A stretch of DNA of 64,000 nucleotides from a virus (IMGVR_UViG_3300015171_000003); one strand, 5' to 3'; numbered from the stretch's first letter, positions 46,088-63,364 are shown. Notes: generated by a model not told the origin, from the letters alone. Numbers and translations: made by a program.

Positions 46088-46880
46088 AACAATTTTTCAA
46101 ATTTAAATACAACTCATTCATTTTAATATCATCTTTCACAATGCCGCTCATTTGTCCATCATTTATTTCTATCAGTATCCAATCACCTGCTTGTGTTTTT
46201 GCAATATCAATTACAAAGAAATCAACATGGTCAGAAATAATATCAGCAATCTTTTTTGCAAATGACATTCCTTCATCATCTAATAATCCAACTTTTTCAC
46301 TATTTGACCAATAGAAAAAATTAGTAAGCATTGTCTTTTTATAAAAGAAAAATCTGTGTTCATTAGAGAATGGAAGTCCACTTATAGAAATTTCCAAATT
46401 TTCTAATGGAACAAAATCTCTAACAATAATTCCTTGACTAGAAATCATAGGATCATCCATCAATTCATGATAAACATCAACAACTCTTTTATATCCTTTT
46501 GCAAACATTTTAGTGTTCCACTTATGTTTAGAGGAATTTGTCCTTCCTTTGACCACAAAAGATTTATCTTCATCCTTTGGAACTTCAACTAAATTAAAAT
46601 AAGTTTTTGGAGTAAAATCCTTTACATGTTCATAATAATCAAAATTGGCAATGTAAGTATGTTAACTAAATGTATTAATCAATTGACATCCATGTTTTAT
46701 CAAGTCAATCTCTAATTCTTTGTAAAATGGCCGAACGGAATATCTCCCAATAACTAATTGCTTTTTACAATCTATTCTACTATTGACTACTTCAAAATAT
46801 TTCTTGGCAACAAAATATTCTTTATCTGCTTCATAGATATTATCTACAAGATTTCTGTATAGTATAATTGGAGATTTCAT
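46080..46880 (-). pseudogene. ATP-grasp enzyme gene interrupted by one in-frame TAA (at 46662-46664). It is either a pseudogene or a read-through gene.
   Basis: Track ORFs 46662..46880 and 46080..46556 are in the same frame, and the 35 codons between them have no other stop. The inter-ORF codons encode the ATP-grasp P-K-T / FVVKGRTNSS lysine region; the C-terminal part is WILIEINDGQMSG; the downstream track start is GTG. Confidence 0.5.
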
Positions 46881-48094
46881 TCAAATATTTCATTTTTACA
46901 AACTACTAATTCATTTGATCTATTCAACCATTTATTAATCTTCAAGGTAAAACAACCAAATTCAAATTCACCAAGATGATCATCAACAGTAGAACCAGCT
47001 TCAATAACATTCTTTGTCATATTAACAATCTCATTAAAATATTCTTTGAACTTACTTCTAAACTGATTCATGTCAATCGTCAATTCAATATCATGTGGTT
47101 GAATATCTTTTATTGATTTTACTCTCGTTGTTAAATCCCATTTAGTATGTGGTTGTTCCATTTTAATATATTCACTTAATAATTCATCATTATCTAAATA
47201 AATTGTACTACAAAATTGTTCTGTGTTGTATACAATATTTAAATCTTCTTGTTTACATCCTACTAAATTAAATGATATATCAAATACGTGAGGAATTATG
47301 GGGCGAGACTCATTGTCTATCATGACCCAATTATGCCAACGCCTAAGATAATTTCTAGTCGATTGTGTTTGTTTATATTTAAATTCATCTGTGTCATTAC
47401 CTATGCCAGTTTTTGCCCATCCACGATGCGCCCGACATGTCCAATGAAAAACTGTGGCACTCCAAATTTGCTGGATATTATAACCAGCTAAAATAAATCT
47501 TTGAAACAAGTCGCTATCTTCTGTAGGATATCCGTAAGGCCAGTGACCTCCTATCTTAATCATATCTTCAACAAATATCATCCATGGAGCAAATATTCCT
47601 GTTGTGATTTTATTTTTGTTTTCTTCAATTAATTTTTTTGAATAATCTATAAAAGCAGTTTCATTAAAATCTATAGCAGTCATACCAAAATTTTTAATAA
47701 TTTTTGCTGAATCTTTGGGATGTATAGGCGGCTCAATACGAGTCCCACTACAAACTCTACCACGAATCATGTGTTTAGAAAGTTGATTTATATAATCAAA
47801 TCCAGAACACATATCAGAATGAAAAATAGTACCTATTTCATTTTTTGCCATTTTAAATCCAATATCATATAACTTGGGATGTCCAATATGTGGTTCATTA
47901 AATCTCTTATATATCAAATTAGGATCATCTTTTATACTTTCAAAAAAAGATTGTGTGTCATCATCAGAATTATCATCCAAAACAATTATTTCGTGATCTT
48001 TAGAATTATATTTTCTTAAAGAATTATATGCTATTTTTACAAAAGAATCCGTATTCCATGTAGGCATTATTATACTAACTTTAATATCACTCAT
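46877..48094 (-). CDS. family-2 glycosyltransferase (GT-A fold) with a large C-terminal domain
   Basis: VSIIMPTWNT...EIIVLDDNSDDDT. Confidence 0.6.
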   Translation of the reverse strand: MSDIKVSIIMPTWNTDSFVKIAYNSLRKYNSKDHEIIVLDDNSDDDTQSFFESIKDDPNLIYKRFNEPHIGHPKLYDIGFKMAKNEIGTIFHSDMCSGFDYINQLSKHMIRGRVCSGTRIEPPIHPKDSAKIIKNFGMTAIDFNETAFIDYSKKLIEENKNKITTGIFAPWMIFVEDMIKIGGHWPYGYPTEDSDLFQRFILAGYNIQQIWSATVFHWTCRAHRGWAKTGIGNDTDEFKYKQTQSTRNYLRRWHNWVMIDNESRPIIPHVFDISFNLVGCKQEDLNIVYNTEQFCSTIYLDNDELLSEYIKMEQPHTKWDLTTRVKSIKDIQPHDIELTIDMNQFRSKFKEYFNEIVNMTKNVIEAGSTVDDHLGEFEFGCFTLKINKWLNRSNELVVCKNEIFE

Positions 48095-48107
48095 TACTTA
48101 TTTTTCT

Positions 48108-48407
48108 TCATTCATAATATGTTACTACTTTTGTTTTTTGAAATACTTCAGTCCAATCATTATGCCATTCTGTTCCGTCCCAAGAATTGTAATATCCCGT
48201 TGTTTGTACATAAATAAAATTATTTTGTTGGTCGATTATTTTAAAAACTGCATACATATTATCCACACCACCTTCTTCTCCAATATATCCATCCACAAAT
48301 TCAATTTGATAATCTCCCAATTTTATACTTTTTGCTTTCGTACCCCAGACAAAATCACTAATTGATCCAACTTTTTTAAGCAATCCAATAATTTCTTGTT
48401 TATTCAT
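48108..48407 (-). CDS. hypothetical protein, tandem paralog of 48410..48742
   Basis: Shared Y..(S/T)(S/G)YY(N/S)SWD..(E/D)W..(D/E) core. Confidence 0.4.
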   Translation of the reverse strand: MNKQEIIGLLKKVGSISDFVWGTKAKSIKLGDYQIEFVDGYIGEEGGVDNMYAVFKIIDQQNNFIYVQTTGYYNSWDGTEWHNDWTEVFQKTKVVTYYE

Positions 48408-48409
48408 AA

Positions 48410-48742
48410 TTACTTTCTATATTCTACGATTACTTTTTCATGTGGGTAAACTCGATACCAACCTTCTTCATTCCAATCAGAATCGTCCCATGAACTATAA
48501 GATCCATCAATCTTATAATATTCTAATTTATCATCATATTTAACTTCAATAACTTTAGACATATGTTCTCCACCACCTTCACACCCACCGTCTTCTTCTA
48601 CAAGAGTAATATTCAATCCTTCATATTCAATAGATTTATCTAAATCTAACTTATAAATTAATTCCCAATATGAGTTGTAGTCATCCCCGTATCTACTAGG
48701 AATAGTTTTATCATTTAAAATTTCTAGCACTTTGTTTGACAT
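48410..48742 (-). CDS. hypothetical protein, tandem paralog of 48108..48407
   Basis: See 48108..48407. Confidence 0.4.
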   Translation of the reverse strand: MSNKVLEILNDKTIPSRYGDDYNSYWELIYKLDLDKSIEYEGLNITLVEEDGGCEGGGEHMSKVIEVKYDDKLEYYKIDGSYSSWDDSDWNEEGWYRVYPHEKVIVEYRK

Positions 48743-49500
48743 AATTTTTCTTTCAAGTTTAATTTTTTAACATTGGTTATTTCTTTTATATTTTCAACAA
48801 TGAATCTCGGAAACCACCCAAAACTCATAGAAGTAACTAAATGTTTTAATGCTTTATGAAATGCAGCCTTTTCATTTGCTACAAAATCATTTGGAATTAA
48901 ATATCTTTCCAAGGCAACAACAAAAATTTCTTCTCTACACAATTTAATCTTATCCTCAAATGACAAATCTGTAAACATTTTATAACTACAATTTGCTTTA
49001 TTTAAATCTGGTTTAATTCTTTCATATAATGGGCGATCATAATGTGCCACTAAAATATGTAATTCATCATGTTCATATTCTCTTTTAACATTATCCTTAA
49101 AAAATTCATCATTATTTTTATTAAGATTAACTTTCTTCTTTCCATGAACCAATTTCCATTCATTCACTAACATTTTATAAAGAACTTCATCTGCCTGACA
49201 ACCTTTGTTCTTTAAAAAAATAATGTCGTAAATGGTCTTATCCCACTTAACATCCCAAAAACTATGGCTCAACTTAATCGTGTATAAAAAATTTGGATCA
49301 ACAAATTTAAAATCTATATTATTATCAAGAATATATTGAAAAGAATTTAACCAATATTTTTCAACTTTTCCTTTTAAATAATTAAATCCAAAATATTCTA
49401 AAATATTTTTTTCAAGAGGAGATTGAATAATGTCAAAATCTTTTGGCTCTCTACTATCAGGAAACCAATGATGCAATGCTGTAGAACCAATTATTAACAT
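48724..49500 (-). CDS. LicD-like nucleotidyltransferase-fold phosphotransferase (candidate)
   Basis: IIGSTALHHWFPDSREPKDFDII resembles the LicD GTLLGAVRHxGFIPWDDDIDI motif; the gene sits inside the glycan island. Confidence 0.4.
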   Translation of the reverse strand: MLIIGSTALHHWFPDSREPKDFDIIQSPLEKNILEYFGFNYLKGKVEKYWLNSFQYILDNNIDFKFVDPNFLYTIKLSHSFWDVKWDKTIYDIIFLKNKGCQADEVLYKMLVNEWKLVHGKKKVNLNKNNDEFFKDNVKREYEHDELHILVAHYDRPLYERIKPDLNKANCSYKMFTDLSFEDKIKLCREEIFVVALERYLIPNDFVANEKAAFHKALKHLVTSMSFGWFPRFIVENIKEITNVKKLNLKEKLCQTKC

Positions 49501-49502
49501 AT

Positions 49503-49832
49503 TTATCCATTATAGCCATCCGAATCAAAATTTCCTTTAATTTCAGAGGGGTTTTCAAAATCTTCATTCCAATATTCTTTATCTTTTTTAAGTAATTCCA
49601 AATAATTTCTTTCAGATTGAATAATATATGCCAAATCAATTCTGTGTAACATTCCATTTATTGGATCTATAACATATCCTATACATTCCATGGGTTGTCT
49701 ATTAAAATCTGGTTCTTCCCAACCAGACAAAACCAAATATTTTCTAATTGATTTATAAGTTTCTTCTAATGCAGCACTAATTTCTTTATTTCTCATATCC
49801 ATGATGGTTTTCTTGTGGGATCTTTTGTCCAT
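49503..49832 (-). CDS. hypothetical protein
   Basis: 109-aa ORF. Confidence 0.35.
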   Translation of the reverse strand: MDKRSHKKTIMDMRNKEISAALEETYKSIRKYLVLSGWEEPDFNRQPMECIGYVIDPINGMLHRIDLAYIIQSERNYLELLKKDKEYWNEDFENPSEIKGNFDSDGYNG

Positions 49833-50290: not shown

Positions 50291-50291
50291 A

Positions 50292-50789: not shown

Positions 50790-50816
50790 AGTTTAATAAA
50801 TTTATTTTATAAAAAG

Positions 50817-51047: not shown

Positions 51048-51134
51048 AAGTTATAATTTTACATTATAAAAAATCTATTGTCAAGATTTATTTTAATCGA
51101 TCTTCTACTAATTTTATTGTTTTTTCCCAAAATT

Positions 51135-52028
51135 TTAATATTTTCCTTTAATATGTTTAAAATATCTTTCTCTCATTTGTGGAGATACTTTAGTGAATCC
51201 AACTTCATCAAATAATGGAGGTTCCCCCCATTTATCAATAAATGCTTTGTAATTAATAGATTCCCATTTTTTTCTATCCGAAAACTTTGATATGTCATCA
51301 TTCAACCACGTGCTTGACCTTGAACCAAAATGATATACCAAAGCCTTGCTGGTTACACAAAATTTAAAATCTTCCAAAACCATTCTGGTATGAAGACAAT
51401 AATCTTCCATAAAAGCTTGTCGAAAGCTCTTTGAATCATTGCCGCCAATATAATCCCAATCTTTTTTCCTCATAACATATTGACAACCTTCGATTTTACG
51501 AAACTGAATGTTATTATCTAAAATAAATTGATTGGCAAATTGTTCGAAATATACAGAATCAAACTCATTCCAATACAATCCAAATCCCCCGTCCTCTTTT
51601 TTAAGAGGAGACATGGTTGTTCCTAATCGAGAACTTTGTTGATAAATATTCGGTTCTAATCGCCAACTAGATACCACGCTTTTTTCACCCATAGATTTAC
51701 AAAGATCCAATAATACCTTATCATAATCTTTTGCAATATACATGTCTGTATGAATCAATGAAAAAAATTCCGTTTCAACTCTTGAGATGGCTTCGTTTCC
51801 TCCTCCACCAATACCTTTGGGTTCTTCATTAAATTCAATAATTGATTTAATGTCGGGCTGTGTTGCTAACCACTCATTAGTTCCTTCACCAGGATGATTA
51901 TTTTCAGAATATACAATGATTGGAGCATCTTTATAATATCCATTCTTTCTAATTGATTCTACTGCTAACTTTAAATAATTGCTTGTATTGAATGCATTAA
52001 TACACCAAGTTAATTCTGGTTTACTCAT
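51135..52028 (-). CDS. glycosyltransferase-like protein (GT-A-like)
   Basis: N-terminal TWCINAFNTSNYLKLAVESI...PIIVYSEN resembles a GT2 start; a possible DxD lies in HTDMY. Confidence 0.45.
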   Translation of the reverse strand: MSKPELTWCINAFNTSNYLKLAVESIRKNGYYKDAPIIVYSENNHPGEGTNEWLATQPDIKSIIEFNEEPKGIGGGGNEAISRVETEFFSLIHTDMYIAKDYDKVLLDLCKSMGEKSVVSSWRLEPNIYQQSSRLGTTMSPLKKEDGGFGLYWNEFDSVYFEQFANQFILDNNIQFRKIEGCQYVMRKKDWDYIGGNDSKSFRQAFMEDYCLHTRMVLEDFKFCVTSKALVYHFGSRSSTWLNDDISKFSDRKKWESINYKAFIDKWGEPPLFDEVGFTKVSPQMRERYFKHIKGKY

Positions 52029-52349: not shown

Positions 52350-52916
52350 TTATAATTCAGTTAAAATTTTTTCTCTAGCATTCCCCAACGCAATTCCCAA
52401 CCAATTAGTCCCCCATTTATCCTTTTCATTAAAAACATTTACATCATCTTCAAGATAACCAATACCCCAAATTCTATCATATGGAGAAGCTTCAATTAAA
52501 ATATATGGATCAGTTAAAATAATAAGTTCTTTAAATTTATCATTGCTAATAAATTTTTTGTAATTTGAATATGAAACAAAATTCACAACATTTTCTTCCC
52601 AAACAGATTGGTCAAAGTTTTTTACTTTTTTACCCAAAGCTTTTTGATCTTTTGGTGATGTTGATTGTAAAATTTTCTGAAAAGATTCTTCATCATTAAA
52701 AACACTTGCTTTATATAACATCATTGCTTGTTCAGCGCAATTTACTCTATATTCAGAATTATTAATTGTTACTGTATATAAACATGGATGCCATTGAGAA
52801 AATATCCCATTCCAAAAAAGAATAGATTTTTCTTCTGGATATAATGTGGCATCTAAAGATTTAATTTTGATTTTTCTCATGATTTTAATTTTACAATAAT
52901 TAATTATTTTGATCAA
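52350..52916 (-). CDS. NADAR (DUF1768/YbiA-like) domain protein
   Basis: ILFWNGIFSQWHP...NCAEQAMMLYKA...PKDQKALGKKV...LIEASPYDRIWGIGY matches the NADAR consensus FFWGG..SNF...E..fq..K.....P.......W......L.E..p.D..WG.G. Confidence 0.55.
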   Translation of the reverse strand: MIKIINYCKIKIMRKIKIKSLDATLYPEEKSILFWNGIFSQWHPCLYTVTINNSEYRVNCAEQAMMLYKASVFNDEESFQKILQSTSPKDQKALGKKVKNFDQSVWEENVVNFVSYSNYKKFISNDKFKELIILTDPYILIEASPYDRIWGIGYLEDDVNVFNEKDKWGTNWLGIALGNAREKILTEL

Positions 52917-53603: not shown

Positions 53604-53712
53604 AAAAATTCACATCTCATTTATTCTCAATTTCTACTACTTTACATTTTAATCCTGTAGTTGGATGCTATGGTTCAACATGTAATAAAATATGAATTAA
53701 TCTACTATAAAT
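53600..53712. repeat. copy 1 of a direct repeat of about 110 nt (copy 2 at 54022..54130); it contains a decayed duplicate of the 3' end of gene 54032..54277
   Basis: The aligned DNA is about 80% identical; minus-strand translation of copy 1 gives ...HVEP*HPTTGLKCKVVEIENK versus the intact ...SIEPRYPKTGLKYKVVEIENNES. Confidence 0.6.
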
Positions 53713-53751: not shown

Positions 53752-54051
53752 TCAAACAACAGGTTTCAATGCTTCGTCCACTACTTTTACAATTGTTTTC
53801 TTTAAATCTACCAAATTCAATTTTTCAATATTATTTAAATTATGTTGATTTTTCAAAATAAAAAATAATTCATCAATAACTTTTTTCTTAGAAAGTCCAG
53901 CAGCAATTAAATCATGAATTAATTCTATTTTAAATTTTAATATTGGGGAAGTGTTTATTTCTACAATTGGCGATTTCCATGATTCTTTTTTATTAAATAC
54001 TATTTTATATTGCATATCTTTTTCAAAATTTTCATGACTCATTATTCTCAA
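53752..54051 (-). CDS. hypothetical protein (flanked by the direct repeats of about 110 nt)
   Basis: 99-aa ORF; the track start is TTG and an ATG lies 12 nt downstream. Confidence 0.35.
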   Translation of the reverse strand: MRIMSHENFEKDMQYKIVFNKKESWKSPIVEINTSPILKFKIELIHDLIAAGLSKKKVIDELFFILKNQHNLNNIEKLNLVDLKKTIVKVVDEALKPVV

Positions 54052-54277
54052 TCTCCACTACTTTATATTTTAATCCTGTTTTTGGATACCGTGGTTCAAT
54101 AGATAATTCTGTATGAATTAATCTAAGTTGCTCAGAAGTTTTTTGTAAAATTGCTGACAATCCTGCTTCAAATAATTTATACTCGTCTGGATATTTTGGA
54201 GGATGATTCTTAAAGTTCATCACATATGTGTCTAACTCAAAAATTAATTGTTCAATCTTTTCTTCGGGTGTTTTCAT
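54032..54277 (-). CDS. hypothetical protein
   Basis: 81-aa ORF; its 3' end is the source of the duplicated segment. Confidence 0.35.
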   Translation of the reverse strand: MKTPEEKIEQLIFELDTYVMNFKNHPPKYPDEYKLFEAGLSAILQKTSEQLRLIHTELSIEPRYPKTGLKYKVVEIENNES

Positions 54278-54649: not shown

Positions 54650-55402
54650 TCATGAATATAACTCTGCTTCTTTTTTCAATTTTTTCCATTCTGTTAATAG
54701 TCCAAGTTCATTAAACATATTATGTTGTTCTTTTTCGGAGAATTGGCAATACTGTTGCATATTAATTCCCGAAACTCCCTTTTTAACTGTTAATGAATTT
54801 AAATGTAATGCGGAAATATAATCAACAACACCAATTCTCCAACGATTTTTTTTACATATATAAGAAAATAAAAAATCTATTCCCCATCCTCTAATATTAT
54901 TTACAACAATTTCACTGTAATTATATTGAAATTCTTTTAGTAATTTTCTAGATAATAAAGGCATCTGAAAATCAATATAAGGAACATTTCTAATTTCTTT
55001 TGTATTATTCCCCAACATCATTTTCCAATGGCATTGAGCATTCCAACCTTCCATATTAAAAAATGTTCCACTTAATAAATCATAACCTCCGATATCAGCT
55101 TCATAAACTAAAGATTTAACAAAATTATTTCCATTGATAACCAAATCATTGTTCATGAAAAGTAAATAATCTGCATTTGTCTCTAAAAACATATCTACAC
55201 AAGCACAAAATGCGCCTCCAAAAAAGAAATTTTGTTCTAAATAATGAGTTGTATATTTTGATTGAAGGTCTTCTTTGCTTCCATTATCAAGAACCCAGAT
55301 TTCATAATTATCTCTATCCGAATATGGTTGTAATGATTCCACAAGTTTATCTGTCTCTTGTGGTAAATTATGATTCAAAACTGAAACTACTATTCTACTC
55401 AT
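54650..55402 (-). CDS. family-2-like glycosyltransferase
   Basis: VVSVLNHNLPQ...YEIWVLDNGSKED. Confidence 0.5.
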   Translation of the reverse strand: MSRIVVSVLNHNLPQETDKLVESLQPYSDRDNYEIWVLDNGSKEDLQSKYTTHYLEQNFFFGGAFCACVDMFLETNADYLLFMNNDLVINGNNFVKSLVYEADIGGYDLLSGTFFNMEGWNAQCHWKMMLGNNTKEIRNVPYIDFQMPLLSRKLLKEFQYNYSEIVVNNIRGWGIDFLFSYICKKNRWRIGVVDYISALHLNSLTVKKGVSGINMQQYCQFSEKEQHNMFNELGLLTEWKKLKKEAELYS

Positions 55403-56174: not shown

Positions 56175-56207
56175 TTTAATGCTTTTTTTCAAGTATACCA
56201 TTCCCAA
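56175..56207. repeat. 33-nt direct-repeat copy of the 3' end of the GMP-reductase-like gene (the other copy, at 56405..56437, is the real gene end)
   Basis: ttaatgctttttttcaagtataccattcccaat versus ttaatgtttcttttcaagaataccattcccaat (29/33 identical). Both copies encode IGNGILEKKH-stop on the minus strand, and together they bracket the small ORF 56208..56402. Confidence 0.6.
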
Positions 56208-56402
56208 TTAAATAGTTTTTTCTACTTCTAGTATCGGGATAGTTTCCCATTCACTCCAACTTTGTTCGTCACCTTCTATATTATCAATAATATATTTGAT
56301 TTGTAGTTCCACATCTGATATAAAAATATCTTTTCCAAAAAACCAAGATTTGCCAATATTATATTTTGTCTTGAGCCATCGGAGTTTTAATTTAGGTTTC
56401 AT
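56208..56402 (-). CDS. hypothetical small protein inserted between the 33-nt direct repeats
   Basis: 64-aa ORF. Confidence 0.3.
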   Translation of the reverse strand: MKPKLKLRWLKTKYNIGKSWFFGKDIFISDVELQIKYIIDNIEGDEQSWSEWETIPILEVEKTI

Positions 56403-56404
56403 AT

Positions 56405-57382
56405 TTAATGTTTCTTTTCAAGAATACCATTCCCAATAAAATCTGTCAAGCTTAAATAACCAGAATAACTAACACCACTAGATATTCCTCCAACTAAATC
56501 ATCAACTAATTCTTTTAATGGTCTAATCTTATTCTTGTCCACCTCTATCACAGTACCTTCGCTATGACGTTTAGCAGTACCGTAGTGCAATTTTTGTTGA
56601 TGATTCGAGGCACCACCCCAATACTTAAAATTTTTATCTATAATTGATTGAGATTCTTCTGCATGAGAAAAATATCCACCAAGCATAACTTTTGTTGCTC
56701 CCACGGAAAATGCTTTTGTTGCACAGCCCGAATCTTTTATTCCTCCATCAGCAATAATATTAATTGGATAATTATGATCTTTACAAAAATCAGAACATTC
56801 TATTAATTCTGTTATCTGGCCTCTTGTGTAACCAGTCATGTCTTTTGTTGTGCAGACGACCCCATTTCCAATGCCAACACGTACAGACAATCTATTTAAA
56901 CAAGGAATATCATTTTTATAATTAACAAATATATCGGGTGTATGAACATTACCAATTATTAAATTTACATCCATCAATAAACATCTAGCAAAATCAATTA
57001 CATTTTGTTGATATCCATTCGCCACATCAATAATAAAATTTTTAACTCCTATGGCACTTAATGAATGATATCTATCCCAATCATTTAATCCAATACAATA
57101 CCATAATTTATCACAATCAAACTTTTTAACTAAATTAACTTGCTCTTCAATAGTACAAAATCTATGTAAACAAACATGTATACCAGTTTCTATTGCTGCT
57201 CTTATGAATGATTCACCAACTATAGCTGCCATTGGAGAAACAATTATTCGTTCTCTAATATCAGTTATATCTTTTCTTGATTTCAACTCAGTGTGTTGAG
57301 CAATCAAATTTACATCATCATAATATATGGATGTGGATTTTAATATCGTCGCCATATTTTTACCACACAACTTCAAAATCAA
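56405..57382 (-). CDS. guaC: GMP reductase / IMP dehydrogenase family (GuaC-like) TIM-barrel enzyme
   Basis: Catalytic-Cys loop VGIGNGVVCTTK (compare GIGPGSVCTTR) and IADGGIKDSGCATKAFSVGATKVMLGGYFSHAEES (compare IADGG...GDVAKAFGAGADFVMLGGM). Confidence 0.65.
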   Translation of the reverse strand: MILKLCGKNMATILKSTSIYYDDVNLIAQHTELKSRKDITDIRERIIVSPMAAIVGESFIRAAIETGIHVCLHRFCTIEEQVNLVKKFDCDKLWYCIGLNDWDRYHSLSAIGVKNFIIDVANGYQQNVIDFARCLLMDVNLIIGNVHTPDIFVNYKNDIPCLNRLSVRVGIGNGVVCTTKDMTGYTRGQITELIECSDFCKDHNYPINIIADGGIKDSGCATKAFSVGATKVMLGGYFSHAEESQSIIDKNFKYWGGASNHQQKLHYGTAKRHSEGTVIEVDKNKIRPLKELVDDLVGGISSGVSYSGYLSLTDFIGNGILEKKH

Positions 57383-57629: not shown

Positions 57630-57631
57630 AA

Positions 57632-58474
57632 TTAATATTCCTTTGGTAAGCCACTACTTGACTGCATTACTACCCCAAGATAATTGTCTGCAATTTGATT
57701 TAATGTTATTCCTTTTTGTTTATATTCAACGTACTGTTGTAAGTAATGGAATACTTTAAATAAAGGTTCTCTTGGATAGAGTGGATGTATTCCGCTAGCC
57801 AAAAAAGCTTCTCCATACCAAGTAAATTCACTAGCATGTTTATAAAATAAATTATATACACTAATATTAGCATCTTTACAGTATTCATTTAGAAGAAATT
57901 TCCACACTTTAGTTGAACAAATAATTGGTATTGGACCAAAATCATAAGATAAAGATTTATTATCAAATATATTTTTGATTGGTTGTCTTGACTCCTCAAA
58001 TGACTTTTTAGCATTAAATGAAAATAAATTTTTGTTAATAGAAAACCACGAAAACAAATCTTTCTGTTCGTGGCAAATTGTATATGGATGTTCTATTTTA
58101 TTACCATCCATTATAAAGAAATCTTTTAGATAAAAATCTCTAATAAAAATAGAATCTGAATCAATCATTATAAAATATTCTAAGTCTTTTAATACTAAAT
58201 GAGGAAAAGATTTAAATAATTGTTGATTAATCCAACCATTGCTATATCCACTTGGAATATTTAATTCATTTGAAATAGCTTCATCCGAAAGAAATTCATA
58301 AGTTTTTAACCCGACTTGACTCTGTAACTCATAAAATCTATCTAATTTATCAATAGCATAAAATGGAATATTGTCTTTATTATATTTTTGGATAGATTCG
58401 TATAAAACCTTAAATCTATCTTGGTCCTTATGATAAGTCTTGCAGATAATTGCTACATTCTTCATTAAGTACAA
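57632..58474 (-). CDS. glycosyltransferase-like protein
   Basis: N-terminal VAIICKTYHKDQDRF and IMIDSDSIF (DxD-like) suggest a GT-A fold. Confidence 0.4.
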   Translation of the reverse strand: MYLMKNVAIICKTYHKDQDRFKVLYESIQKYNKDNIPFYAIDKLDRFYELQSQVGLKTYEFLSDEAISNELNIPSGYSNGWINQQLFKSFPHLVLKDLEYFIMIDSDSIFIRDFYLKDFFIMDGNKIEHPYTICHEQKDLFSWFSINKNLFSFNAKKSFEESRQPIKNIFDNKSLSYDFGPIPIICSTKVWKFLLNEYCKDANISVYNLFYKHASEFTWYGEAFLASGIHPLYPREPLFKVFHYLQQYVEYKQKGITLNQIADNYLGVVMQSSSGLPKEY

Positions 58475-58515
58475 ATATTTTATTCTATAAAATTATTTAT
58501 GGCAATATATTTTAA

Positions 58516-59085
58516 TTAAGGAAGTATATCACTTGATGGCCAATCTTTAATTATTCCCAATTCTTTTCTAATAATATTTTTGTGTGGAGTATAACATTGT
58601 TCGTGTGGTGTAAAAACAATTTTTGAATTGGTTGGTATTTTAAAAAAAGGAATGACTTTTGTTCTAATAAAAGATTCAGGAACTTCGTTTCCATTAAGAA
58701 TATCAAAATCATTTTTATCTCCCTCAATTCTTCCTCTAGGAAAAGCAAGGAAACAATTTTTTAATTTATTTATAAGTTCCTCTTTTTCTTTTAACGACAT
58801 CCCAAATTTATAATAATTAACTACTGCTGGTAATACTGTTTTTTCCCAAAATTTTCCATGTAATCCCTGATCATCTAATAAATCGGAATTTCTATTTCCA
58901 TAAAATCCCCAAGTTCCTCCCAAAAAAGGAGCATAATATAATCCAGCAGAAGCATTTCCCAATTGTGTAGTATCTTCAGAAAGAATTCCTTCATTCTCTA
59001 ATTGTTTTCTATAAAGAATTGATTTCATTAATCCTGGATAAATTTTCTTCACTATTTCTCCCATTTTTATTTTTGTTTCTTCCAT
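58516..59085 (-). CDS. hypothetical protein
   Basis: 189-aa ORF. Confidence 0.4.
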   Translation of the reverse strand: MEETKIKMGEIVKKIYPGLMKSILYRKQLENEGILSEDTTQLGNASAGLYYAPFLGGTWGFYGNRNSDLLDDQGLHGKFWEKTVLPAVVNYYKFGMSLKEKEELINKLKNCFLAFPRGRIEGDKNDFDILNGNEVPESFIRTKVIPFFKIPTNSKIVFTPHEQCYTPHKNIIRKELGIIKDWPSSDILP

Positions 59086-59089
59086 AATA

Positions 59090-59887
59090 TTAAACTTGAT
59101 AACTTATATTTTTAGAAAATTCTCTCTCTCCCAAATAAAAATTTGATTCTATAGGAGATACTTCTAAAATTCTGGGAACATCTAATGAATTTGCTATTGC
59201 AAAAGGAGAAGATTGATTACCAATGAACTTCTTACATGAACTAATTAATGTAAAATTCTCAAATAATGTTAAATTTCCCCAGCGAATTACTTTATCTTTA
59301 TAAGGAAACATATCATATTCATCATCACTACCCATCAAAATAAAATTTTTTTCTTCTCTAAATAATTTATCCCAATTAAATAGTGGATCATATCTAACAG
59401 ATTTATTACTCCTATGAATTACTACATAATCTTTTAAAGTAATATTTTTATATTCAAAATTAATCCACGCATAATCATTTGGAACATCTAATTCAAATGT
59501 ATCACACATTATTTTAGTCCAGGTTGTTTTATACAAATTTGGATGTTGTCTAAAAACATTTAAATTTACTAAATCTTTAGATTCCCTCTGACCTTTGTAA
59601 ATATTAAAACTGTGTATATAATCTTGTTTAGTAATTATAGAACACAATTCTTCATATGTATTTTTCAACCCATTTCTGAAAATATCTCCACCAAATGAAT
59701 GATCATCTGTGATATAAAGTTCGGCTTTTGTTCCTAATTTCTTACAAATATGCTTTACAGCAAATAATGAATGAATAAAATCTCCTAAATATCCCCCAGA
59801 GATAAATGGAGTAATTGGGCTAAGATTGTTTTCCATAAACTTTTGTAGAACCTTGGCCATAAAGTTTGACTGGTTCTCTACTAACAA
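59090..59887 (-). CDS. GT9-like (heptosyltransferase-like) glycosyltransferase candidate
   Basis: ISGGYLGDFIHSLFAVKHICKKLG resembles the GT9 N-terminal GDvl...p motif. Confidence 0.35.
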   Translation of the reverse strand: MLVENQSNFMAKVLQKFMENNLSPITPFISGGYLGDFIHSLFAVKHICKKLGTKAELYITDDHSFGGDIFRNGLKNTYEELCSIITKQDYIHSFNIYKGQRESKDLVNLNVFRQHPNLYKTTWTKIMCDTFELDVPNDYAWINFEYKNITLKDYVVIHRSNKSVRYDPLFNWDKLFREEKNFILMGSDDEYDMFPYKDKVIRWGNLTLFENFTLISSCKKFIGNQSSPFAIANSLDVPRILEVSPIESNFYLGEREFSKNISYQV

Positions 59888-60074
59888 TCATTTTATTAAT
59901 AGTTTCATCAATCTCTTGAATTAAATCATTTCTAAGTTGATTAAGAGTATTTGTTTTTCTTGTTGCATTTGCTACTAACTTATCATCAGAAGAATCTCTT
60001 TTAAGATCTTCTAAATGCCAAATTTTTAAATTTGTTACTGTCAACTTATCTATTAAATTTCCTACTGTTTCCAT
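59820..60074 (-). CDS. hypothetical protein
   Basis: 84-aa ORF. Confidence 0.3.
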   Translation of the reverse strand: METVGNLIDKLTVTNLKIWHLEDLKRDSSDDKLVANATRKTNTLNQLRNDLIQEIDETINKMIVSREPVKLYGQGSTKVYGKQS

Positions 60075-60078
60075 ATTT

Positions 60079-60948
60079 TTATTTTACTATAATCCGCTCT
60101 GGTACACATAATTGATACATCGCCATGGCTTTTACTTCTAGGAATGTTTGTTCTTGTATTCTTATATAATTAGAATTATCTTTATATTGTGTGTCCAATT
60201 TAAAATCTATTCCAGTCTCTTTATAAGCTTCTTTATATTCTGGATGGAGTCTTAACCACCCATGATGATAAAATTGCAACGGAATCCTACCTGTAATCTT
60301 TCCTTGGCCGTGTATCCAATCATTATAACCATGCATTCCAGGTCCAAGACCACCAGCATCTAAAAATTTAAGTAATTCGGAAGATCTAACTGTATAATAC
60401 CATCCATCTGTTGGCATTTGATAAAATCCTTTAATATTAGATTCAGGAACATCGGTTGTGTGAATAAATCCATTCGAATATGGAAGCATTGGTTCAAAAT
60501 CTACTGATACGGCACCCACTTGTGAATTATGTTCTAATATATCGGTTAAATCATTCAACCAAAGAGTTTTATTTATTTTCAAACTCATATCAAAATCTGT
60601 CAGGGAAACATATTCATAATCAGAAATGAGTTTCTTTATACTATAATGTGAAAGAAGTCTCCAAATATTAGAAAAATAATTTTCATCACAATCATAAAAT
60701 CTCAATATTCTTTTATCTTTCAATAATTGAGAACAATATCTTAATATACTATCATATCTCGATGATTTATTTTCTAAAACAATAATATCCGAAATTTCTT
60801 GTTGATGCCACAAACTATGTAATGTTGGAATCAAAAACTCAACAAACTTCCATGTTCTGCCAACGACTAATACTTTTTTCTTACTCATATGGAATTTCTT
60901 TTGTATAAAAATCGTTGACTCCATAGCGCAATACTCTAAAATATCCAA
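60079..60948 (-). CDS. hypothetical protein, possible glycosyltransferase
   Basis: 289-aa ORF inside the glycan island; no firm motif. Confidence 0.35.
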   Translation of the reverse strand: MDILEYCAMESTIFIQKKFHMSKKKVLVVGRTWKFVEFLIPTLHSLWHQQEISDIIVLENKSSRYDSILRYCSQLLKDKRILRFYDCDENYFSNIWRLLSHYSIKKLISDYEYVSLTDFDMSLKINKTLWLNDLTDILEHNSQVGAVSVDFEPMLPYSNGFIHTTDVPESNIKGFYQMPTDGWYYTVRSSELLKFLDAGGLGPGMHGYNDWIHGQGKITGRIPLQFYHHGWLRLHPEYKEAYKETGIDFKLDTQYKDNSNYIRIQEQTFLEVKAMAMYQLCVPERIIVK

Positions 60949-61519
60949 TATTAACTAAATAATCTACGACTTCTGGTTCATCAAAATTATTTTCAATTAC
61001 TAGAAGCTTCGGGGAATATTTATTAATATCAAATCCTTTTAATACATCCAATTCAGTTCCTTCTGTGTCAATAGAAACAATATCTAATTCTACTTCGAAA
61101 TTATTTTCTTTAATAATCAAATCCAATGTCTTACATGGAACTTTGACTGTATGAAATTTTGGATTATATTGTTTGTGAGATTCAACTAATCTTTGGTCAA
61201 CATTTAAACCACTAATTGCTGTTTGATTCCCATCATGTAATGTACATACTTGAAATTCTAAATCTACCCCAGATATATTTGACACAGCATTCCAAACAGT
61301 ATTCTTTCTAACTAATTTACATTTTTCGTAATTTTCTGGATTAGCTTCAATACACAAACAATTCCAACCTAATTCTTCAAAATGTTTTGTGTTAGAACCC
61401 ATAATTCCGTCTGCAGCACCAACTTCAATACAATTTCCGATATAACCTTCTTCGAAAAACTTTTCTATAAATCTATCAGTTTCCCCTTGGCCATGTTCTG
61501 CACCATAATATCTACTCAT
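60881..61519 (-). CDS. FkbM-family SAM-dependent methyltransferase
   Basis: CIEVGAADGIMGSNTKHF...CLCIEANPENY. Confidence 0.6.
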   Translation of the reverse strand: MSRYYGAEHGQGETDRFIEKFFEEGYIGNCIEVGAADGIMGSNTKHFEELGWNCLCIEANPENYEKCKLVRKNTVWNAVSNISGVDLEFQVCTLHDGNQTAISGLNVDQRLVESHKQYNPKFHTVKVPCKTLDLIIKENNFEVELDIVSIDTEGTELDVLKGFDINKYSPKLLVIENNFDEPEVVDYLVNIGYFRVLRYGVNDFYTKEIPYE

Positions 61520-61558
61520 ATATAAAATTCTTTCTTCATAAGATCATCATAAACTATC

Positions 61559-62131
61559 TCATTTAAACACAATCATTCCTGTACCAGTCCAATGTCCAAT
61601 AGCAGTTAAATCATACTTTTCAATTTCAAGAGAATTAAAGAAGTAAGTTATATTTGCATTTAAATGTATATCATCAAACAAAACATATCCCTTATATCCA
61701 ATCTCAACCAAAAAATTATAAAGGTCATATTCATAACTTCCATCATGAACAGTATCTACATATAAAAATGGAGAACTTAAAATAAGATCCTTATTATTAA
61801 TTGGATCATCTTTAATAAAATTAACATTGTCCTTTTTTAATGTAATCTGTTCCACTATATCAAATGTATTAATTTTATTGTTAGCATTAAAAGATAAAGC
61901 TAATGCACTATCTCCATAGGCTGTCCCAATATCTGTTAAAATAGATCCTTCAAATTTAGTTGAAAAATAGGCAAGTAATCTATAAATTTCTCTTCCAGGT
62001 TCTCCAAAAAAGAAAGGTTGCATTTGTGGAGAGACTTTGTCAGTTAAACTAGAAATATCTAATTTGGCAACCTCATCAAAATTAAAATCTATATCATTAA
62101 TTATCATATTATTAAAAAGAAACTGATTCAA
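61559..62131 (-). CDS. class-I SAM-dependent methyltransferase-like protein
   Basis: Motif I-like TDIGTAYGDSALAL. Confidence 0.4.
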   Translation of the reverse strand: MNQFLFNNMIINDIDFNFDEVAKLDISSLTDKVSPQMQPFFFGEPGREIYRLLAYFSTKFEGSILTDIGTAYGDSALALSFNANNKINTFDIVEQITLKKDNVNFIKDDPINNKDLILSSPFLYVDTVHDGSYEYDLYNFLVEIGYKGYVLFDDIHLNANITYFFNSLEIEKYDLTAIGHWTGTGMIVFK

Positions 62132-62591
62132 ATTTTAATGAAATGCCGAAGTCTGAATTACCAACAAAATCTTTTTTGGCATATCCAGAAGATACATAAT
62201 TTATAATTTCACAATTTTTATAATTGTGTGTTTCGATGAGTTTTGAATTTTCATCACAAATATTAACTATAATATCTCTTTTACTGGAATGTATCTTTTT
62301 AAAATTTACCAATTTATCTAATACATTAAAATCTACTCTTTCTTCTACTGTTAGAATAAATGTATTAAGATTTGGTGTGTATTTTGTTATTAATTCTGAT
62401 GGAATATAATCATCTATAAATTTAACTTGAAAATTTCCATTATATCTTTTTTTAGATACCTCCGATTTTTCTTCTTTTTGAATATTCTCTGTTTTGTTAA
62501 ATAAATCTAATTTTTCTTCTTTTTGGACACTCTCTGGTTTGTTAACCGAACTCTCTATTTTATTAATCGCACTCACTGTTTTAGTACTCAT
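62112..62591 (-). CDS. hypothetical protein
   Basis: 159-aa ORF. Confidence 0.35.
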   Translation of the reverse strand: MSTKTVSAINKIESSVNKPESVQKEEKLDLFNKTENIQKEEKSEVSKKRYNGNFQVKFIDDYIPSELITKYTPNLNTFILTVEERVDFNVLDKLVNFKKIHSSKRDIIVNICDENSKLIETHNYKNCEIINYVSSGYAKKDFVGNSDFGISLKFESVSF

Positions 62592-63364
62592 TGTCTTATA
62601 TTTTCTTTATGTGTAAACATTTCATTATAAAATGTATTTTGTTTTACTTGTCTTTCAATTGTTTTTGGATGATATAATGCATAATCAAATTCTTTTGGTA
62701 ATAAAGAATATTCCTTATACCCCACAATATTTTCATGTAACTTTCTATCCCATTTAATTTTCGGAGAATTTCTATACAATCTTCCTTGATAATCTCCGGT
62801 CCCCCAATTTATTAATGGCAAATTATGTTGTATCCATTCCTTATTATCTTTGACAATAAAATCATGTTTCTTTAAAAATGTTAATTGTTCAAAATTTAAT
62901 TCGGAAATCTTACTATCTACTAAAAATGAAGATTTTGAAATTTCCCACCCCCATTTTAATATTTCCTTTTCAGAAAGTCCATATATAATATTTATTCGTG
63001 GAAAACAAAACAAATCGATTGATGGATTAGTGTCGATAATATCAATTATGTTATCTAACAAAAATTCAGAAGGGTACTCGTCTGCATCAATTTGCCATAT
63101 ATATTCCGATTTACATTGTTCATTTCCAAATTGTTTGTGACCACCAAAATCATTATCTAATTTGTGTTTAACTATCACATACTTTGAATTGTTATCATAC
63201 TTTTTTAACAAATCCAATGTATGAATATTAGTTGAATAATCATCTAACAACACTACTTGGATGTCATTTTTCTCAACAAAATCTTTGGTGGCTGTTAATA
63301 AATGATCTAATTCAACATCTTCGTTGTGAACAGTAATTAATAATGATAATTTCATTTTTAACAA
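62588..63364 (-). CDS. family-2 glycosyltransferase
   Basis: LSLLITVHNEDVELDHLL...VVLLDDYSTN and a DxD motif in QIDADEY. Confidence 0.6.
   Translation of the reverse strand: MLKMKLSLLITVHNEDVELDHLLTATKDFVEKNDIQVVLLDDYSTNIHTLDLLKKYDNNSKYVIVKHKLDNDFGGHKQFGNEQCKSEYIWQIDADEYPSEFLLDNIIDIIDTNPSIDLFCFPRINIIYGLSEKEILKWGWEISKSSFLVDSKISELNFEQLTFLKKHDFIVKDNKEWIQHNLPLINWGTGDYQGRLYRNSPKIKWDRKLHENIVGYKEYSLLPKEFDYALYHPKTIERQVKQNTFYNEMFTHKENIRQ

Follow-up and report, generated by a model that had tools for sequence, protein, structure and literature searches.

The glycan genes of the region

The window analysed here is a stretch of 64,000 nt from an uncultured large bacteriophage, for which a preliminary description had proposed a glycan-biosynthesis island of about 17 kb at 46877-63364. 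The glycan genes are clustered, but the island is not contiguous, as denV, NADAR, DUF7275 and GMP reductase genes and about 12 small unknown ORFs lie between them, and it continues past the window end. Within the first 46 kb, no glycosyltransferase appeared among the available Pfam annotations, which covered approximately 5.5-27 kb and 36-46 kb through precomputed gene calls, plus scans of selected larger ORFs; the clustering of the glycan genes therefore looks non-random. All the genes located below are encoded on the minus strand.

The three GT2 signatures regarded as clear in the preliminary description were confirmed with PF00535, whose Pfam gathering score is 23.3 bits. The first belongs to a 405-aa glycosyltransferase (46877..48094; 60.8 bits) with a conserved, uncharacterised C-terminal half; at least 219 IMG/VR contigs encode full-length relatives of this hallmark protein, and 80 loci were kept for comparison. 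The second is a GT2/DUF707-like enzyme of 250 aa (GT2-250; 54650..55402; 32.4 bits), with orthologues in 43 of the 80 viral loci and 72% identity to its counterpart in L004, a relative of 217 kb found in other samples. The third, of 255-258 aa (GT2-258; 62588..63364; 45.7 bits), has orthologues in 30 of these loci and matches gp178 of the Flavobacterium phage immuto. A weaker candidate at 51135..52028 also proved to be a GT2 enzyme, of 297 aa (GT2-297), scoring 25.1 bits against the gathering 23.3; its orthologues (37-50% identity) occupy a distinct position in 26 of the 80 loci. At the window end, 63656..64000 holds the C-terminal 115 codons of a GT4-like (GT-B) glycosyltransferase of 427 aa, the remainder lying past the edge; the gene scores 23.7 bits with Glycos_transf_1, slightly under the gathering score, and has orthologues at 44-46% identity in 27 viral loci, immuto gp180 included.

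Two other weak candidates were recognised through AF2 models, since neither matched a Pfam domain. The product of 60079..60888 (269 aa) is a divergent GT-A-fold glycosyltransferase of a rare family, with only 19 relatives among 1.8 billion representatives, some remote ones carrying GT2; ENxS and TDxD motifs are conserved in the family, and the model (pLDDT 85.6) has SpsA, TarP, GtrB and heparosan synthase as top Foldseek matches. The product of 59090..59836 (248 aa) is a GT-B-fold, GT9-like glycosyltransferase from a family of about 40 metagenomic members, whose model (pLDDT 93.8) finds the GT9 heptosyltransferases WaaC, WaaF and TibC at probability 1.0. Close relatives of this enzyme occur in Pithovirus and Klosneuvirus (TM 0.86, 28-35% identity), and another phage encodes it fused to FkbM. 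The last of the weak candidates, at 57632..58465, is a DUF6492 protein of 277 aa (PF20102, 39.5 bits), which we keep as a candidate transferase only: DUF6492 is found alongside GT2 genes in 28 of the 80 loci, its D-S-D motif is invariant and 4 of 16 members match Stealth_CR2 weakly, but profile comparisons matched it to neither GT-A enzymes nor PDB chains.

The methyltransferases anticipated for the region were all recovered. An FkbM methyltransferase of 212 aa (60881..61519; PF05050, 63.8 bits) is 77% identical to its counterpart in L004. The class I SAM-dependent O-methyltransferase-like protein of 182 aa at 61559..62107 did not match Pfam directly, and was recognised by remote homologues with a PF01596 or PF13578 domain (E = 7e-9 to 9e-8); its identity to the L004 counterpart is 60%. 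The second FkbM gene (43313..44026; PF05050, also 63.8 bits) lies 3 kb outside the interval of the island, and has as its sole match an FkbM in the locus L008 (26%); it is a plausible, putative member of the same pathway.

Three small genes lie among them. An 84-aa DUF4254 protein (59820..60074; PF14063, 43.2 bits) reaches into the start of the GT9-like gene, directly upstream of which it is found in L003, L004, L005 and L009; with 86% identity to L004 and 62-65% to L008 and L009, its conservation is far above that of the GT9-like gene. The 189-aa ORF at 58516..59085, without a match in Pfam and PHROG searches, is 60% identical to a counterpart at the same position in L004, and the 159-aa ORF at 62112..62591 gave no Pfam or PHROG match and no homologue in L004. 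Both belong to a tightly packed sub-cluster in which genes overlap at start and stop codons, in the order GT2, unknown ORF, O-methyltransferase, FkbM, GT-A, DUF4254, GT9-like, unknown ORF and DUF6492.

Embedded genes probably outside the glycan pathway

GMP reductase, denV, NADAR, DUF7275 and an R2K/GNAT pair are neighbours outside the glycan pathway. The gene at 56405..57376 (also given to 57382) encodes, as anticipated, an enzyme of the IMPDH/GMPR family of GMP-reductase type (PF00478, 122.7 bits). Its best NCBIfam match is GMP reductase, below the cutoff, and among solved structures GMP reductase 1 comes closest; the segments DVANGY, GIGxGxVCTT, ADGG and MLGG align with human GMPR1 (2ble). 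Because these hallmarks are kept, a role in nucleotide metabolism suits the enzyme better than the supply of nucleotide sugars formerly suggested, and the gene is probably one of nucleotide metabolism rather than of glycan synthesis. Nor is it a recent random insertion, the other proposal, because L004 keeps it in the same position with 72% protein identity.

The gene at 48724..49500, previously taken for a LicD-like phosphotransferase, encodes a DUF7275/DUF7277 protein (Pfam 196 and 35 bits) without a LicD match, and the phosphocholine or ribitol-phosphate decoration that depended on that call falls with it. Its PHROG matches, phrog_6944 and phrog_2141, have no assigned function. The protein turns up in 714 phage records, including those of T4-like coliphages, and is not specific to glycan loci. 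Next to the hallmark GT2, at lower coordinates, an R2K.3 ATP-grasp gene (46080..46880, with the ATP-grasp at 46080-46556; R2K_3 65.5 bits) is present as described. Frame analysis shows it to be split by one in-frame TAA (46662-46664), and it overlaps by 8 nt a GNAT gene (45557-46087). Operons that join R2K.3 to a GNAT have been described and linked to the modification of peptides or proteins (PMC4431377), and the two genes form a separate two-gene unit, which argues against the glycan acylation once attributed to the GNAT.

A conserved module and its relatives

The region holds an expanded version of a glycosyltransferase module that large aquatic tailed phages have in common. Seven genes make up its core, namely two GT4-like, three short GT2, DUF6492 and the 405-aa GT2; the window contains five of them, and the other two are located at its edge or past it. 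Many of the 80 IMG/VR loci carry these five together with the two GT4-like genes on a single strand and with little change of order, in a span of 5-10 kb, and at least four of the five were present in 18 loci. In the window, unrelated genes (denV, NADAR, DUF7275, GMP reductase) stretch the module to about 17 kb, and the GT9-like, DUF4254, GT-A, FkbM and O-methyltransferase genes are a lineage-specific addition; the sub-cluster is syntenic in L004 at 48-86% identity. Unrelated accessory genes have pulled the core apart in this lineage, which has also gained the packed sub-cluster. The accessory enzymes of the relatives vary and include C-methyltransferases, epimerases, aminotransferases and a sulfotransferase.

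As glycan loci are typical of bacterial genomes, the island could in principle be a bacterial polysaccharide locus joined to phage sequence by contamination or chimeric assembly, a doubt already voiced in the preliminary description. However, composition is uniform (GC 0.282 and GC3 0.178 in glycan genes, 0.290 and 0.173 in other genes), and GC skew and strand bias are alike inside and outside the island. The locus L003 is identical to the window across an overlap of 10,890 nt, Logan contigs (sample ERR4837132) show no difference in the 10.9 kb that were compared, and the block is syntenic in the 217 kb relative. Moreover, orthologues exist in IMG/VR contigs and in a cultured phage, and the phage-typical denV and DUF7275 genes are interleaved with the glycan genes. 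We consider contamination effectively refuted, and the glycosyltransferases and sugar-type methyltransferases a genuine viral glycan-building set.

The closest cultured relative of the module is found in immuto, where four of the seven core genes have orthologues: gp169 (36% identity to the 405-aa GT2), gp178 (32% to GT2-258), gp180 (46% to the 427-aa GT4-like protein) and gp181 (46% to a 319-aa GT4). As in the window, the immuto genes lie on one strand, encode soluble products and belong to the non-structural arm of a large phage genome; in immuto this arm serves replication and nucleotide metabolism, and the DNA polymerase, RNR and Que genes share the strand of the module. Unlike the window, immuto lacks orthologues of GT2-297, GT2-250 and DUF6492 and the GT9-like/DUF4254/GT-A sub-cluster, has enzymes that modify nucleotide sugars (WecE-type aminotransferases, an epimerase and an acetyltransferase) and are absent from the window, and keeps its cluster compact (about 11 kb) rather than interrupted. 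We found no published functional test of the immuto cluster in the literature searched.

The conserved block in the IMG/VR loci and immuto, the synteny of the sub-cluster and the FkbM-GT9-like fusion support a functional link among the dispersed genes. A different reading is that there is no single pathway, and that several glycosyltransferases work independently, for instance in counter-defence with proteins of the host, small molecules or nucleotide-derived signals as their targets, the island being a build-up of accessory genes in a hyperplastic region. Unrelated genes are indeed interleaved with the glycan genes, the GT4-like genes match 'GT4-conflict' weakly with a SIR2 gene recurring beside them in three lineages, and NAD/ADP-ribose counter-defence genes abound in the surrounding window, NAD-salvage and counter-defence genes being the neighbours of the module. 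Nevertheless, a compact block of fixed order in many other phages, the start/stop-codon overlaps of the sub-cluster and the known FkbM-GT fusion make this reading unlikely.

Proposed assembly and acceptor of the glycan

The gene set falls short of a complete polysaccharide pathway, contrary to what had been claimed. Genes for nucleotide-sugar synthesis, including the cognate ones whose search had been suggested, for an initiating phosphoglycosyl transferase, a flippase, a polymerase or an exporter were found neither in the island, nor in the 4 kb beyond, nor in the annotated part of the window. No glycosyltransferase or methyltransferase of the island has a transmembrane segment, and 40-64 kb encodes a single membrane protein, from an unrelated ORF of 165 aa; across 25 modules, none of 332 genes has two or more transmembrane-like segments. 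All the glycan enzymes are predicted to be soluble. As none of them makes nucleotide sugars or exports glycan, cytoplasmic assembly from host nucleotide sugars and SAM is the most likely course: during infection, the soluble enzymes would draw on these host pools and build a methylated hetero-oligosaccharide stepwise in the cytoplasm.

The acceptor would not be DNA. Pathways of DNA hypermodification, in which a methylated oligosaccharide on 5hmC, 5hmU or another base would allow restriction evasion, do offer a precedent, because phage GT-A (TarP-like) and GT-B enzymes akin to those of LPS and teichoic-acid synthesis, sometimes acting serially, put mono- to trisaccharides, heptose included, on 5hmC (Pyle et al., bioRxiv 10.1101/2023.12.21.572611). 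Nucleotide-metabolism genes also surround the module, and the window encodes a dCMP deaminase and a MazG-like protein. However, such clusters usually adjoin base-modifying genes (5mYOX/TET, C5-methyltransferase or thymidylate-synthase-like) and add at most three sugars (bioRxiv 10.1101/2023.12.21.572611), whereas the Pfam annotations available for the window include no ThyS-like hydroxymethylase, 5mYOX/TET or C5-methyltransferase, and its nine transferases and three O-methyltransferases are far beyond any known DNA glycan. In addition, LC-MS of the DNA of immuto, a phage with no more than four of the seven core genes, detected only dA, dC, dT and fdPreQ1 (PMC10516641), and hence no glycosylation. 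We regard a DNA acceptor as very improbable.

Decoration of the virion and remodelling of the host surface are the two leading options. We tentatively favour cytoplasmic assembly of the methylated oligosaccharide on an acceptor other than DNA, and infer that virion proteins of the phage itself are the likeliest candidates, by analogy with giant viruses and mycobacteriophages. A phage-intrinsic acceptor fits the conservation of the core at 35-46% identity across many phages, and the relatives of the GT9-like enzyme in Pithovirus and Klosneuvirus, together with its structural neighbour TibC, a protein heptosyltransferase, make us lean towards phage proteins. Viruses that glycosylate their virions (mycobacteriophages, chloroviruses, mimivirus) likewise use soluble, virus-encoded cytoplasmic transferases without export machinery. 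Methylated sugars are typical of chlorovirus and mimivirus glycans. The capsid and tail tube of mycobacteriophages are glycosylated (Freeman et al., 2023, cited in PMC12619734). Mycobacteriophage glycosyltransferase genes adjoin structural genes; there is no structural gene near the module.

The close rival of virion decoration, in our estimate only somewhat less probable, is remodelling of the host envelope at its cytoplasmic face, through altered undecaprenyl-linked LPS/O-antigen, capsule or Bacteroidota general O-glycan intermediates. Host flippases and ligases would export the altered glycan, which would block superinfection or prevent the adsorption of new virions to debris and to cells already infected. 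Clusters of several glycosyltransferase genes in large phages, such as the cyanophage 'LPS' clusters, are usually interpreted in this way (PMC7824862, section 3.4.10). It must be said that 25 modules without initiating transferase, flippase, polymerase, ligase or transporter speak against it, and that a seven-enzyme core present in very divergent phages would have to suit the export machinery of each host. We know of no lytic phage for which remodelling of the host envelope through such a cluster has been demonstrated by experiment.

Several observations point towards the envelope and count against a phage-protein acceptor. A bacterial homologue of the GT9-like enzyme lies in a Chitinophagaceae envelope-glycan locus with YfhO, GT4, GT2, an epimerase and two FkbM genes, and the canonical acceptors of GT9 enzymes are LPS cores. 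The early-type gene surroundings, here and in immuto, fit host-directed functions better than late virion maturation, and the sugar-modifying accessory genes differ among relatives in a manner that resembles O-antigen-like diversification.

The cyanophage 'LPS/capsular polysaccharide' clusters (jumbo and T4-like phages, e.g., P-SSM2) resemble the window in that large lytic phages carry multiple paralogous glycosyltransferases, drawn from several families, and O-methyltransferases in accessory regions, and their function has only been inferred (Iyer et al., 2021, PMC7824862). They are, however, sporadic and polymorphic and hold full sugar-activation sets of epimerases/dehydratases, kinases and nucleotidyltransferases (PMC7824862), in contrast to the seven-gene core kept across hundreds of contigs, with no sugar-activation gene in the window. 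By description, the 'Moraphages', large aquatic phages associated with Bacteroidota, come near as well: four putative glycosyltransferase orthogroups are among those present in at least 80% of their genomes, and DNA modification, serotype conversion and virion glycosylation are listed as possible roles with no decision among them (PMC12619734).

The glycosyltransferase module and its distribution

The glycan genes scattered over 46877-63364 are parts of one conserved seven-gene module that is stretched in this phage. Its GT2 members were recognised by PF00535, a GT-A fold profile with a Pfam gathering score of 23.3, and are named here by the length of their products in amino acids: GT2-405 (46877-48094; 60.8 bits), GT2-258 (62588-63364; 45.7 bits), GT2-250 (54650-55402; 32.4 bits) and GT2-297 (51135-52028; 25.1 bits, barely over the gathering score). 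The preliminary description had taken the first three for clear GT2 enzymes and the last for a weaker glycosyltransferase candidate, and the profile scores bear out these calls. The gathering score was not reached by 60079-60888 or by 57632-58474, which had been listed with 59090-59836 among the remaining weaker glycosyltransferases; structure models now support a GT-A fold for 60079-60888 and a GT9-like one for 59090-59836, and the third gene stays a candidate.

This third gene (57632-58465) encodes a DUF6492 protein, in whose family a D-S-D motif is invariant in an alignment of 16 members (the window protein and 15 orthologues). Stealth_CR2, a hexose-1-phosphoryltransferase family, gave weak matches in four of the 16 (best E = 0.004), a hint that DUF6492 might make a sugar-phosphate linkage. 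We regard the protein as a candidate transferase. It could not be placed in GT-A, as hhalign against the GT-A-269 profile gave 1% probability, and the family profile found no meaningful match in the PDB.

A GT2-405 orthologue of 36% identity is encoded by immuto, a cultured Flavobacterium phage, inside its annotated glycosyltransferase cluster gp169-gp181. We searched IMG/VR with a pattern built from the alignment of three GT2-405 orthologues and found full-length relatives encoded on 219 viral contigs, from which 80 loci were kept; all island proteins were compared with these loci by tblastn and every region was given to its best query. Separate and co-oriented orthologues of GT2-250 were found in 43 of the 80 loci, of GT2-258 in 30, of DUF6492 in 28 and of GT2-297 in 26, and all five genes occurred together in at least 14; as contig ends truncate many of the loci, these counts are minima. 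The usual order is GT2-258, GT2-297, variable genes, DUF6492, variable genes, GT2-250 and GT2-405, within a span of 5-10 kb. In those loci, and in this phage, the block is preceded by two GT4-like genes, GT4-427 (its last 115 codons at 63656-64000) and then GT4-319, past the window end; their orthologues (44-48% identity) occur in 18-27 loci, including immuto gp180 and gp181.

All seven members are present here, five within the window and two at or past its edge in L003, a Logan contig that is identical to the window over a 10.9-kb overlap and extends 3.6 kb beyond its end. The order is kept except for the relocated GT2-297, and the module covers about 21 kb with the two edge genes (about 16.5 kb for the five window genes) against 5-10 kb elsewhere, being interrupted by denV, a membrane ORF, DUF7275, NADAR, a GMP reductase gene and small unknown ORFs. 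We consider it highly probable that the glycan genes form a functionally linked module of transferases and methyltransferases that assembles a glycan; that the glycosyltransferase genes have independent functions appears improbable.

Multi-glycosyltransferase clusters have been noted in large phages for twenty years, and we know of no experimental proof of their targets. Known clusters of this kind include the cyanophage 'LPS' clusters (PMC7824862) and the four glycosyltransferase orthogroups common to most moraphage genomes (PMC12619734). The annotated cluster of immuto, the closest cultured relative of the module, which infects Flavobacterium and carries a reduced version, is also of the known kind, and the window holds a new member of it, unusually dispersed and augmented. 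What the comparison adds is that the window genes are one widely conserved, purely soluble module, found in hundreds of aquatic phage contigs.

Lineage-specific enzymes: the GT9-like gene, its small neighbour and the methyltransferases

The tight stretch at 59090-62131 (GT9-like, DUF4254, GT-A, FkbM and O-methyltransferase genes) lies outside the common core, and only 1-5 of the 80 loci have it; L004, a syntenic relative on the 217-kb ENA contig GROS21 scaffold_82, shares it at 48-86% identity. The proteins at 59090, 60079 and 61559 had no Pfam, PHROG or PDB sequence match, and single-sequence phmmer against the PDB gave nothing useful for these three, for 48724 or for 57632. Of ten island proteins scanned against PHROGs, seven were left without a family, and only DUF7275, the GMP-reductase-type gene and GT2-405 gave matches.

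Only 19 relatives of 60079-60888 came out of an exhaustive HMMER search through 1.8 billion representatives, and some of the remote ones carry GT2. The family keeps the motifs ENxS and TDxD, with T97, D98 and D100 of the latter, as well as N40 and S42, invariant or nearly so. The AlphaFold (AF2) model (pLDDT 85.6) has SpsA, TarP, GtrB and heparosan synthase as its top Foldseek matches (E = 1.5e-5, probability 1.0), and for this reason the protein is predicted to be a GT-A enzyme: the modelled structure has the single Rossmann-like alpha/beta/alpha domain of that fold, and the family its conserved DxD metal and nucleotide-sugar motif.

The GT9-like gene (59090-59836) belongs to a family of about 40 metagenomic proteins. 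Its AF2 model (pLDDT 93.8) predicts a GT-B fold of two Rossmann domains, and the top 29 PDB structure matches were WaaC, WaaF, a Veillonella GT9 enzyme and TibC (E = 4e-6 to 2e-4), the nearest structures being GT9 heptosyltransferases. There was no Pfam match at E <= 0.1, Glyco_transf_9 included, the score against TIGR04372 was below threshold (18 bits against 45), and the family profile found no GT9 chains in the PDB. In addition, the protein is about 250 aa long against 320-350 aa for WaaC and WaaF, some 80 residues shorter. Because of its failure with the GT9 profiles and its shorter length, we call it GT9-like rather than a GT9 member. Genes for the synthesis of ADP-heptose, the donor of GT9 heptosyltransferases (GmhA, HldE and GmhB), were not found in the Pfam annotations available for the window (in its first 46 kb, gene calls at about 5.5-27 kb and 36-46 kb, plus scans of selected larger ORFs).

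Preceding and overlapping the GT9-like gene is a gene for an 84-aa DUF4254 protein (59820-60074, minus strand), with counterparts at 14278-14532 in L004 and in two further related contigs (L008 1010-1261 and L009 7760-8014). Its identity to the relatives is 86%, and 62-65%, compared with 48%, and 35-38%, for the GT9-like enzyme. Such strong constraint on the small partner suggests a specific role as subunit, acceptor or carrier; the literature searched held essentially nothing on the function of DUF4254, DUF6492 or DUF7275. The pair recurs in other phage-like contigs beside genes for epimerases/dehydratases, sugar C-methyltransferases, FkbM, GT2, GT8, an acetyltransferase and a sulfotransferase, and these contigs also carry dUTPase, PhoH and DNA-polymerase exonuclease genes.

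The methyltransferases of the preliminary description were confirmed: its two FkbM enzymes (60881-61519 and, upstream of the block, 43313-44026) each score 63.8 bits with PF05050 (gathering score 22.7), and its class-I methyltransferase at 61559 (61559-62107) is homologous to the O-methyltransferases of PF01596 and PF13578. The clusters of the relatives contain a gene of the sugar C-methyltransferase type of about 410 aa (Methyltransf_13/23/14; L004 11365-12603, L008 2777-3994, L009 10634-11854), as well as SDR epimerases/dehydratases and aminotransferases, none of which is in the window. From the presence of C-methyltransferases and epimerases there and their absence here, it is probable that the outer sugars added to a shared core differ between related phages.

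Candidate acceptors of the glycan

The preliminary description had seen in the island a complete set for building a methylated, acylated polysaccharide, and this does not hold. Neither the Pfam annotations available for the window nor those of the 3.6 kb beyond it show genes for nucleotide-sugar synthesis or modification, or for an initiating phosphoglycosyl transferase, flippase, polymerase, chain-length regulator, ABC transporter or ligase. The island accordingly lacks what marks an O-antigen or capsule locus, that is, an initiating transferase with Wzx/Wzy or an ABC transporter, and nucleotide-sugar genes. No transmembrane segment was predicted in any glycosyltransferase or methyltransferase, all of which appear soluble, the one membrane ORF in 40-64 kb being unrelated; across 25 related modules, none of 332 genes had two or more TM-like segments. 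Without membrane, export and nucleotide-sugar genes this is not a complete polysaccharide pathway, and, judged from its gene content, the module is most likely a purely cytoplasmic assembly line that would have to draw on nucleotide sugars and SAM of the host.

DNA is a very improbable acceptor. The base-modifying genes that adjoin glycosyltransferases in a cluster for sugar hypermodification of DNA (5mYOX/TET, C5-methyltransferase and thymidylate-synthase-like hydroxymethylase) are absent from the Pfam annotations obtained for the window, and the DNA of immuto, which shares four core genes, contained by LC-UV-MS/MS only dA, dC, dT and fdPreQ1, and no glycosylated nucleoside (PMC10516641). The absent partner genes and the immuto DNA composition together make DNA unlikely, and with DNA unlikely in immuto the question narrows to virion proteins or the host envelope.

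That the glycan is placed on virion or other phage proteins is a possibility that we favour tentatively. A phage-encoded acceptor would fit the 35-46% identity of the core over many phages, and wholly soluble, self-contained machinery would be in line with glycosylation of virion proteins. The relatives of the GT9-like fold would also favour a phage protein: they include proteins of the giant viruses Pithovirus LCPAC304 (A0A481Z895; 35% identity, TM 0.86) and Klosneuvirus (A0A1V0SJ77; 28% identity, TM 0.87), and A0A6J5NY32 of an uncultured Caudovirales phage (467 aa, annotated FkbM) contains the fold in what is a methyltransferase-transferase fusion. A protein acceptor would be favoured as well by the presence of TibC, a protein heptosyltransferase, among the structural neighbours. 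Giant viruses are a precedent for virion glycosylation encoded by the virus itself, and mycobacteriophages are cited as another in PMC12619734.

Remodelling of the host envelope by the module enzymes, which is the standard hypothesis for such clusters (PMC7824862), seems to us somewhat less probable but a close rival, and several observations speak for it. A bacterial homologue of the GT9-like gene belongs to a Chitinophagaceae locus for envelope glycans that also has YfhO, GT4, GT2, an epimerase, an acetyltransferase and two FkbM genes; in immuto the module is placed in the arm of replication and nucleotide metabolism, and here among accessory genes of early type; and the accessory sugar-modifying genes differ between relatives.

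Glycosylation of virion proteins could be put more broadly, and we offer this version with greater reserve: large tailed phages of aquatic Bacteroidota-type hosts might coat their own virions with methylated glycans by means of a conserved, self-contained cytoplasmic machinery, consisting of the seven core transferases and of lineage-specific additions, for example the GT9-like/DUF4254/FkbM set. Such machinery would give bacteriophages an equivalent of the chlorovirus and mimivirus systems, with at least one enzyme family in common with giant viruses. To our knowledge, virus-encoded glycosylation is so far known from giant viruses and mycobacteriophages, and glycans on these virions would extend it to a large group of environmental phages, with consequences for the stability, host recognition and antigenicity of the phage. 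The literature searched offered no experimental study of virion glycans in flavobacterial phages; the choice between virion and host envelope is now directly testable in the existing immuto phage-host pair.

Neighbouring genes and genome setting

Several genes within or beside the block probably have little to do with glycans. The gene at 48724-49500, earlier described as a LicD-like phosphotransferase, encodes a protein with DUF7275 (196 bits) and DUF7277 (35 bits), and no LicD (E <= 0.1), NCBIfam or PDB match was obtained; the DUF7275 family is present in 714 phage records under hypothetical annotations, phages without glycan clusters among them. The GNAT (31.4 bits) had been assigned to acylation of the glycan. 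Its gene overlaps by 8 nt that of an R2K.3 ATP-grasp enzyme (R2K_3, 65.5 bits; 46080-46880, minus strand), and R2K.3-GNAT operons are described as pairs that modify peptides or proteins (PMC4431377), which makes a glycan acyltransferase unlikely. As noted earlier, the ATP-grasp gene is interrupted: one in-frame TAA at 46662-46664 divides it into parts of 72 and 193 aa, the split is also present in the Logan gene calls, and the product may therefore be inactive. Recoding was considered and rejected because TAA is the commonest genuine stop in the window (24 of 39 genes), and the interruption looks like a nonsense mutation or a split gene.

The gene at 56405-57376 scores 122.7 bits with PF00478 over residues 21-315, a TIM-barrel IMPDH/GMPR domain without CBS insert. 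Aligned to human GMPR1 (2ble), its best solved match, it keeps DVANGY, VGIGNGVVCTT (GIGxGxVCTT, with the Cys of the GxGxGxxCTT loop), ADGG and MLGG, the domain and motifs of GMP reductase (GuaC). With this full motif set kept, we rejected a nucleotide-sugar enzyme, considered because an epimerase holds the equivalent position in the related locus L010, and with it the earlier proposal of a nucleotide-sugar precursor supply. The score remains below the NCBIfam equivalog cut-offs (best PRK05096 GMP reductase, 116 bits against 397, with IMP dehydrogenase models scoring similarly), so that the activity is likely rather than assured. The alternative that the gene was simply inserted also fails in the sense of a recent event, as it occupies the same place in L004, between DUF6492 and GT2-250, at 72% identity and is thus a stable resident. 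Conversion of GMP to IMP, and hence towards AMP, would be a sensible function for a phage of 27% GC, and we treat the gene as one of nucleotide metabolism that happens to lie in the block.

Two direct repeats were seen in the region. The first (39 nt, 90% identical; 56175-56213 and 56404-56442) duplicates the last 11 codons and the stop of the GMP-reductase gene beyond a 64-aa ORF (56208-56402); it has the look of a small insertion that duplicated its target and spared the reductase ORF, and points to local insertion activity. In the second (84 nt, 82% identical; 53621-53704 and 54042-54125), the 3' end of an 81-aa ORF (54032-54277) is copied into the gap downstream of a 99-aa ORF (53752-54051), probably as the remnant of a duplicated small gene.

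The gene content of the window is that of a large tailed phage, with nearly all genes short, tightly packed and on the minus strand, about 27% GC throughout and a consistently negative GC skew. It includes a NAMPT gene (best matches 45-51%, in jumbo phages), a T4 denV-type pyrimidine-dimer glycosylase, NADAR, NUDIX, PARP+WGR, an SNF2-type helicase, a 2H/Acb1-like phosphoesterase, PRPP synthetase and a lysozyme. An origin of the island in host contamination, which the preliminary description had proposed to check by composition, was rejected: GC and GC3 are equal in glycan and other genes, strand bias and skew are continuous, phage-typical genes are interleaved, and the block is found again in viral contigs, a cultured phage and the syntenic relative. 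Exact copies of window proteins were found on Logan contigs of sample ERR4837132; megablast against 50,697 phage records gave no match to the island and no near-identical DNA. Scans for sigma-70 promoters (151 against 140 +/- 10) and terminators (3 against 3.7) showed no excess over shuffled sequences, and no tRNA genes were found.

PARP+WGR, PRPP synthetase, a histidine phosphatase, HAD_SAK_2, a 322-aa NUDIX-containing protein adjoining NAMPT, a second NUDIX and NADAR make up a gene set at 19918-21162, 35920-36873, 37105-37716, 38709-39137, 39919-40887, 40889-42289, 44023-44478 and 52350-52916 that looks like NAD+ salvage and ADP-ribose counter-defence. To this set also belongs a SIR2 gene beside the GT4-like genes just beyond the window end (L003 1359-2018), and SIR2 adjoins the glycosyltransferase module in two other viral loci (L034 and L043). 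Other accessory genes are Thg1-like, the 2H/Acb1-like phosphoesterase (416 aa), dCMP deaminase, MazG-like pyrophosphohydrolase, two further adjacent GNATs and an N6/N4 DNA methyltransferase (18191-18985, 29038-30288, 31226-31657, 33958-34347, 34925-35966 and 37979-38707). The phage genome also carries an IS200/IS605-type element, with a Y1 TnpA (22679-23095, minus strand) and a TnpB/Cas12f-like protein (23170-24465, plus strand), the latter having no close relative in 185,579 bacterial and archaeal genomes.
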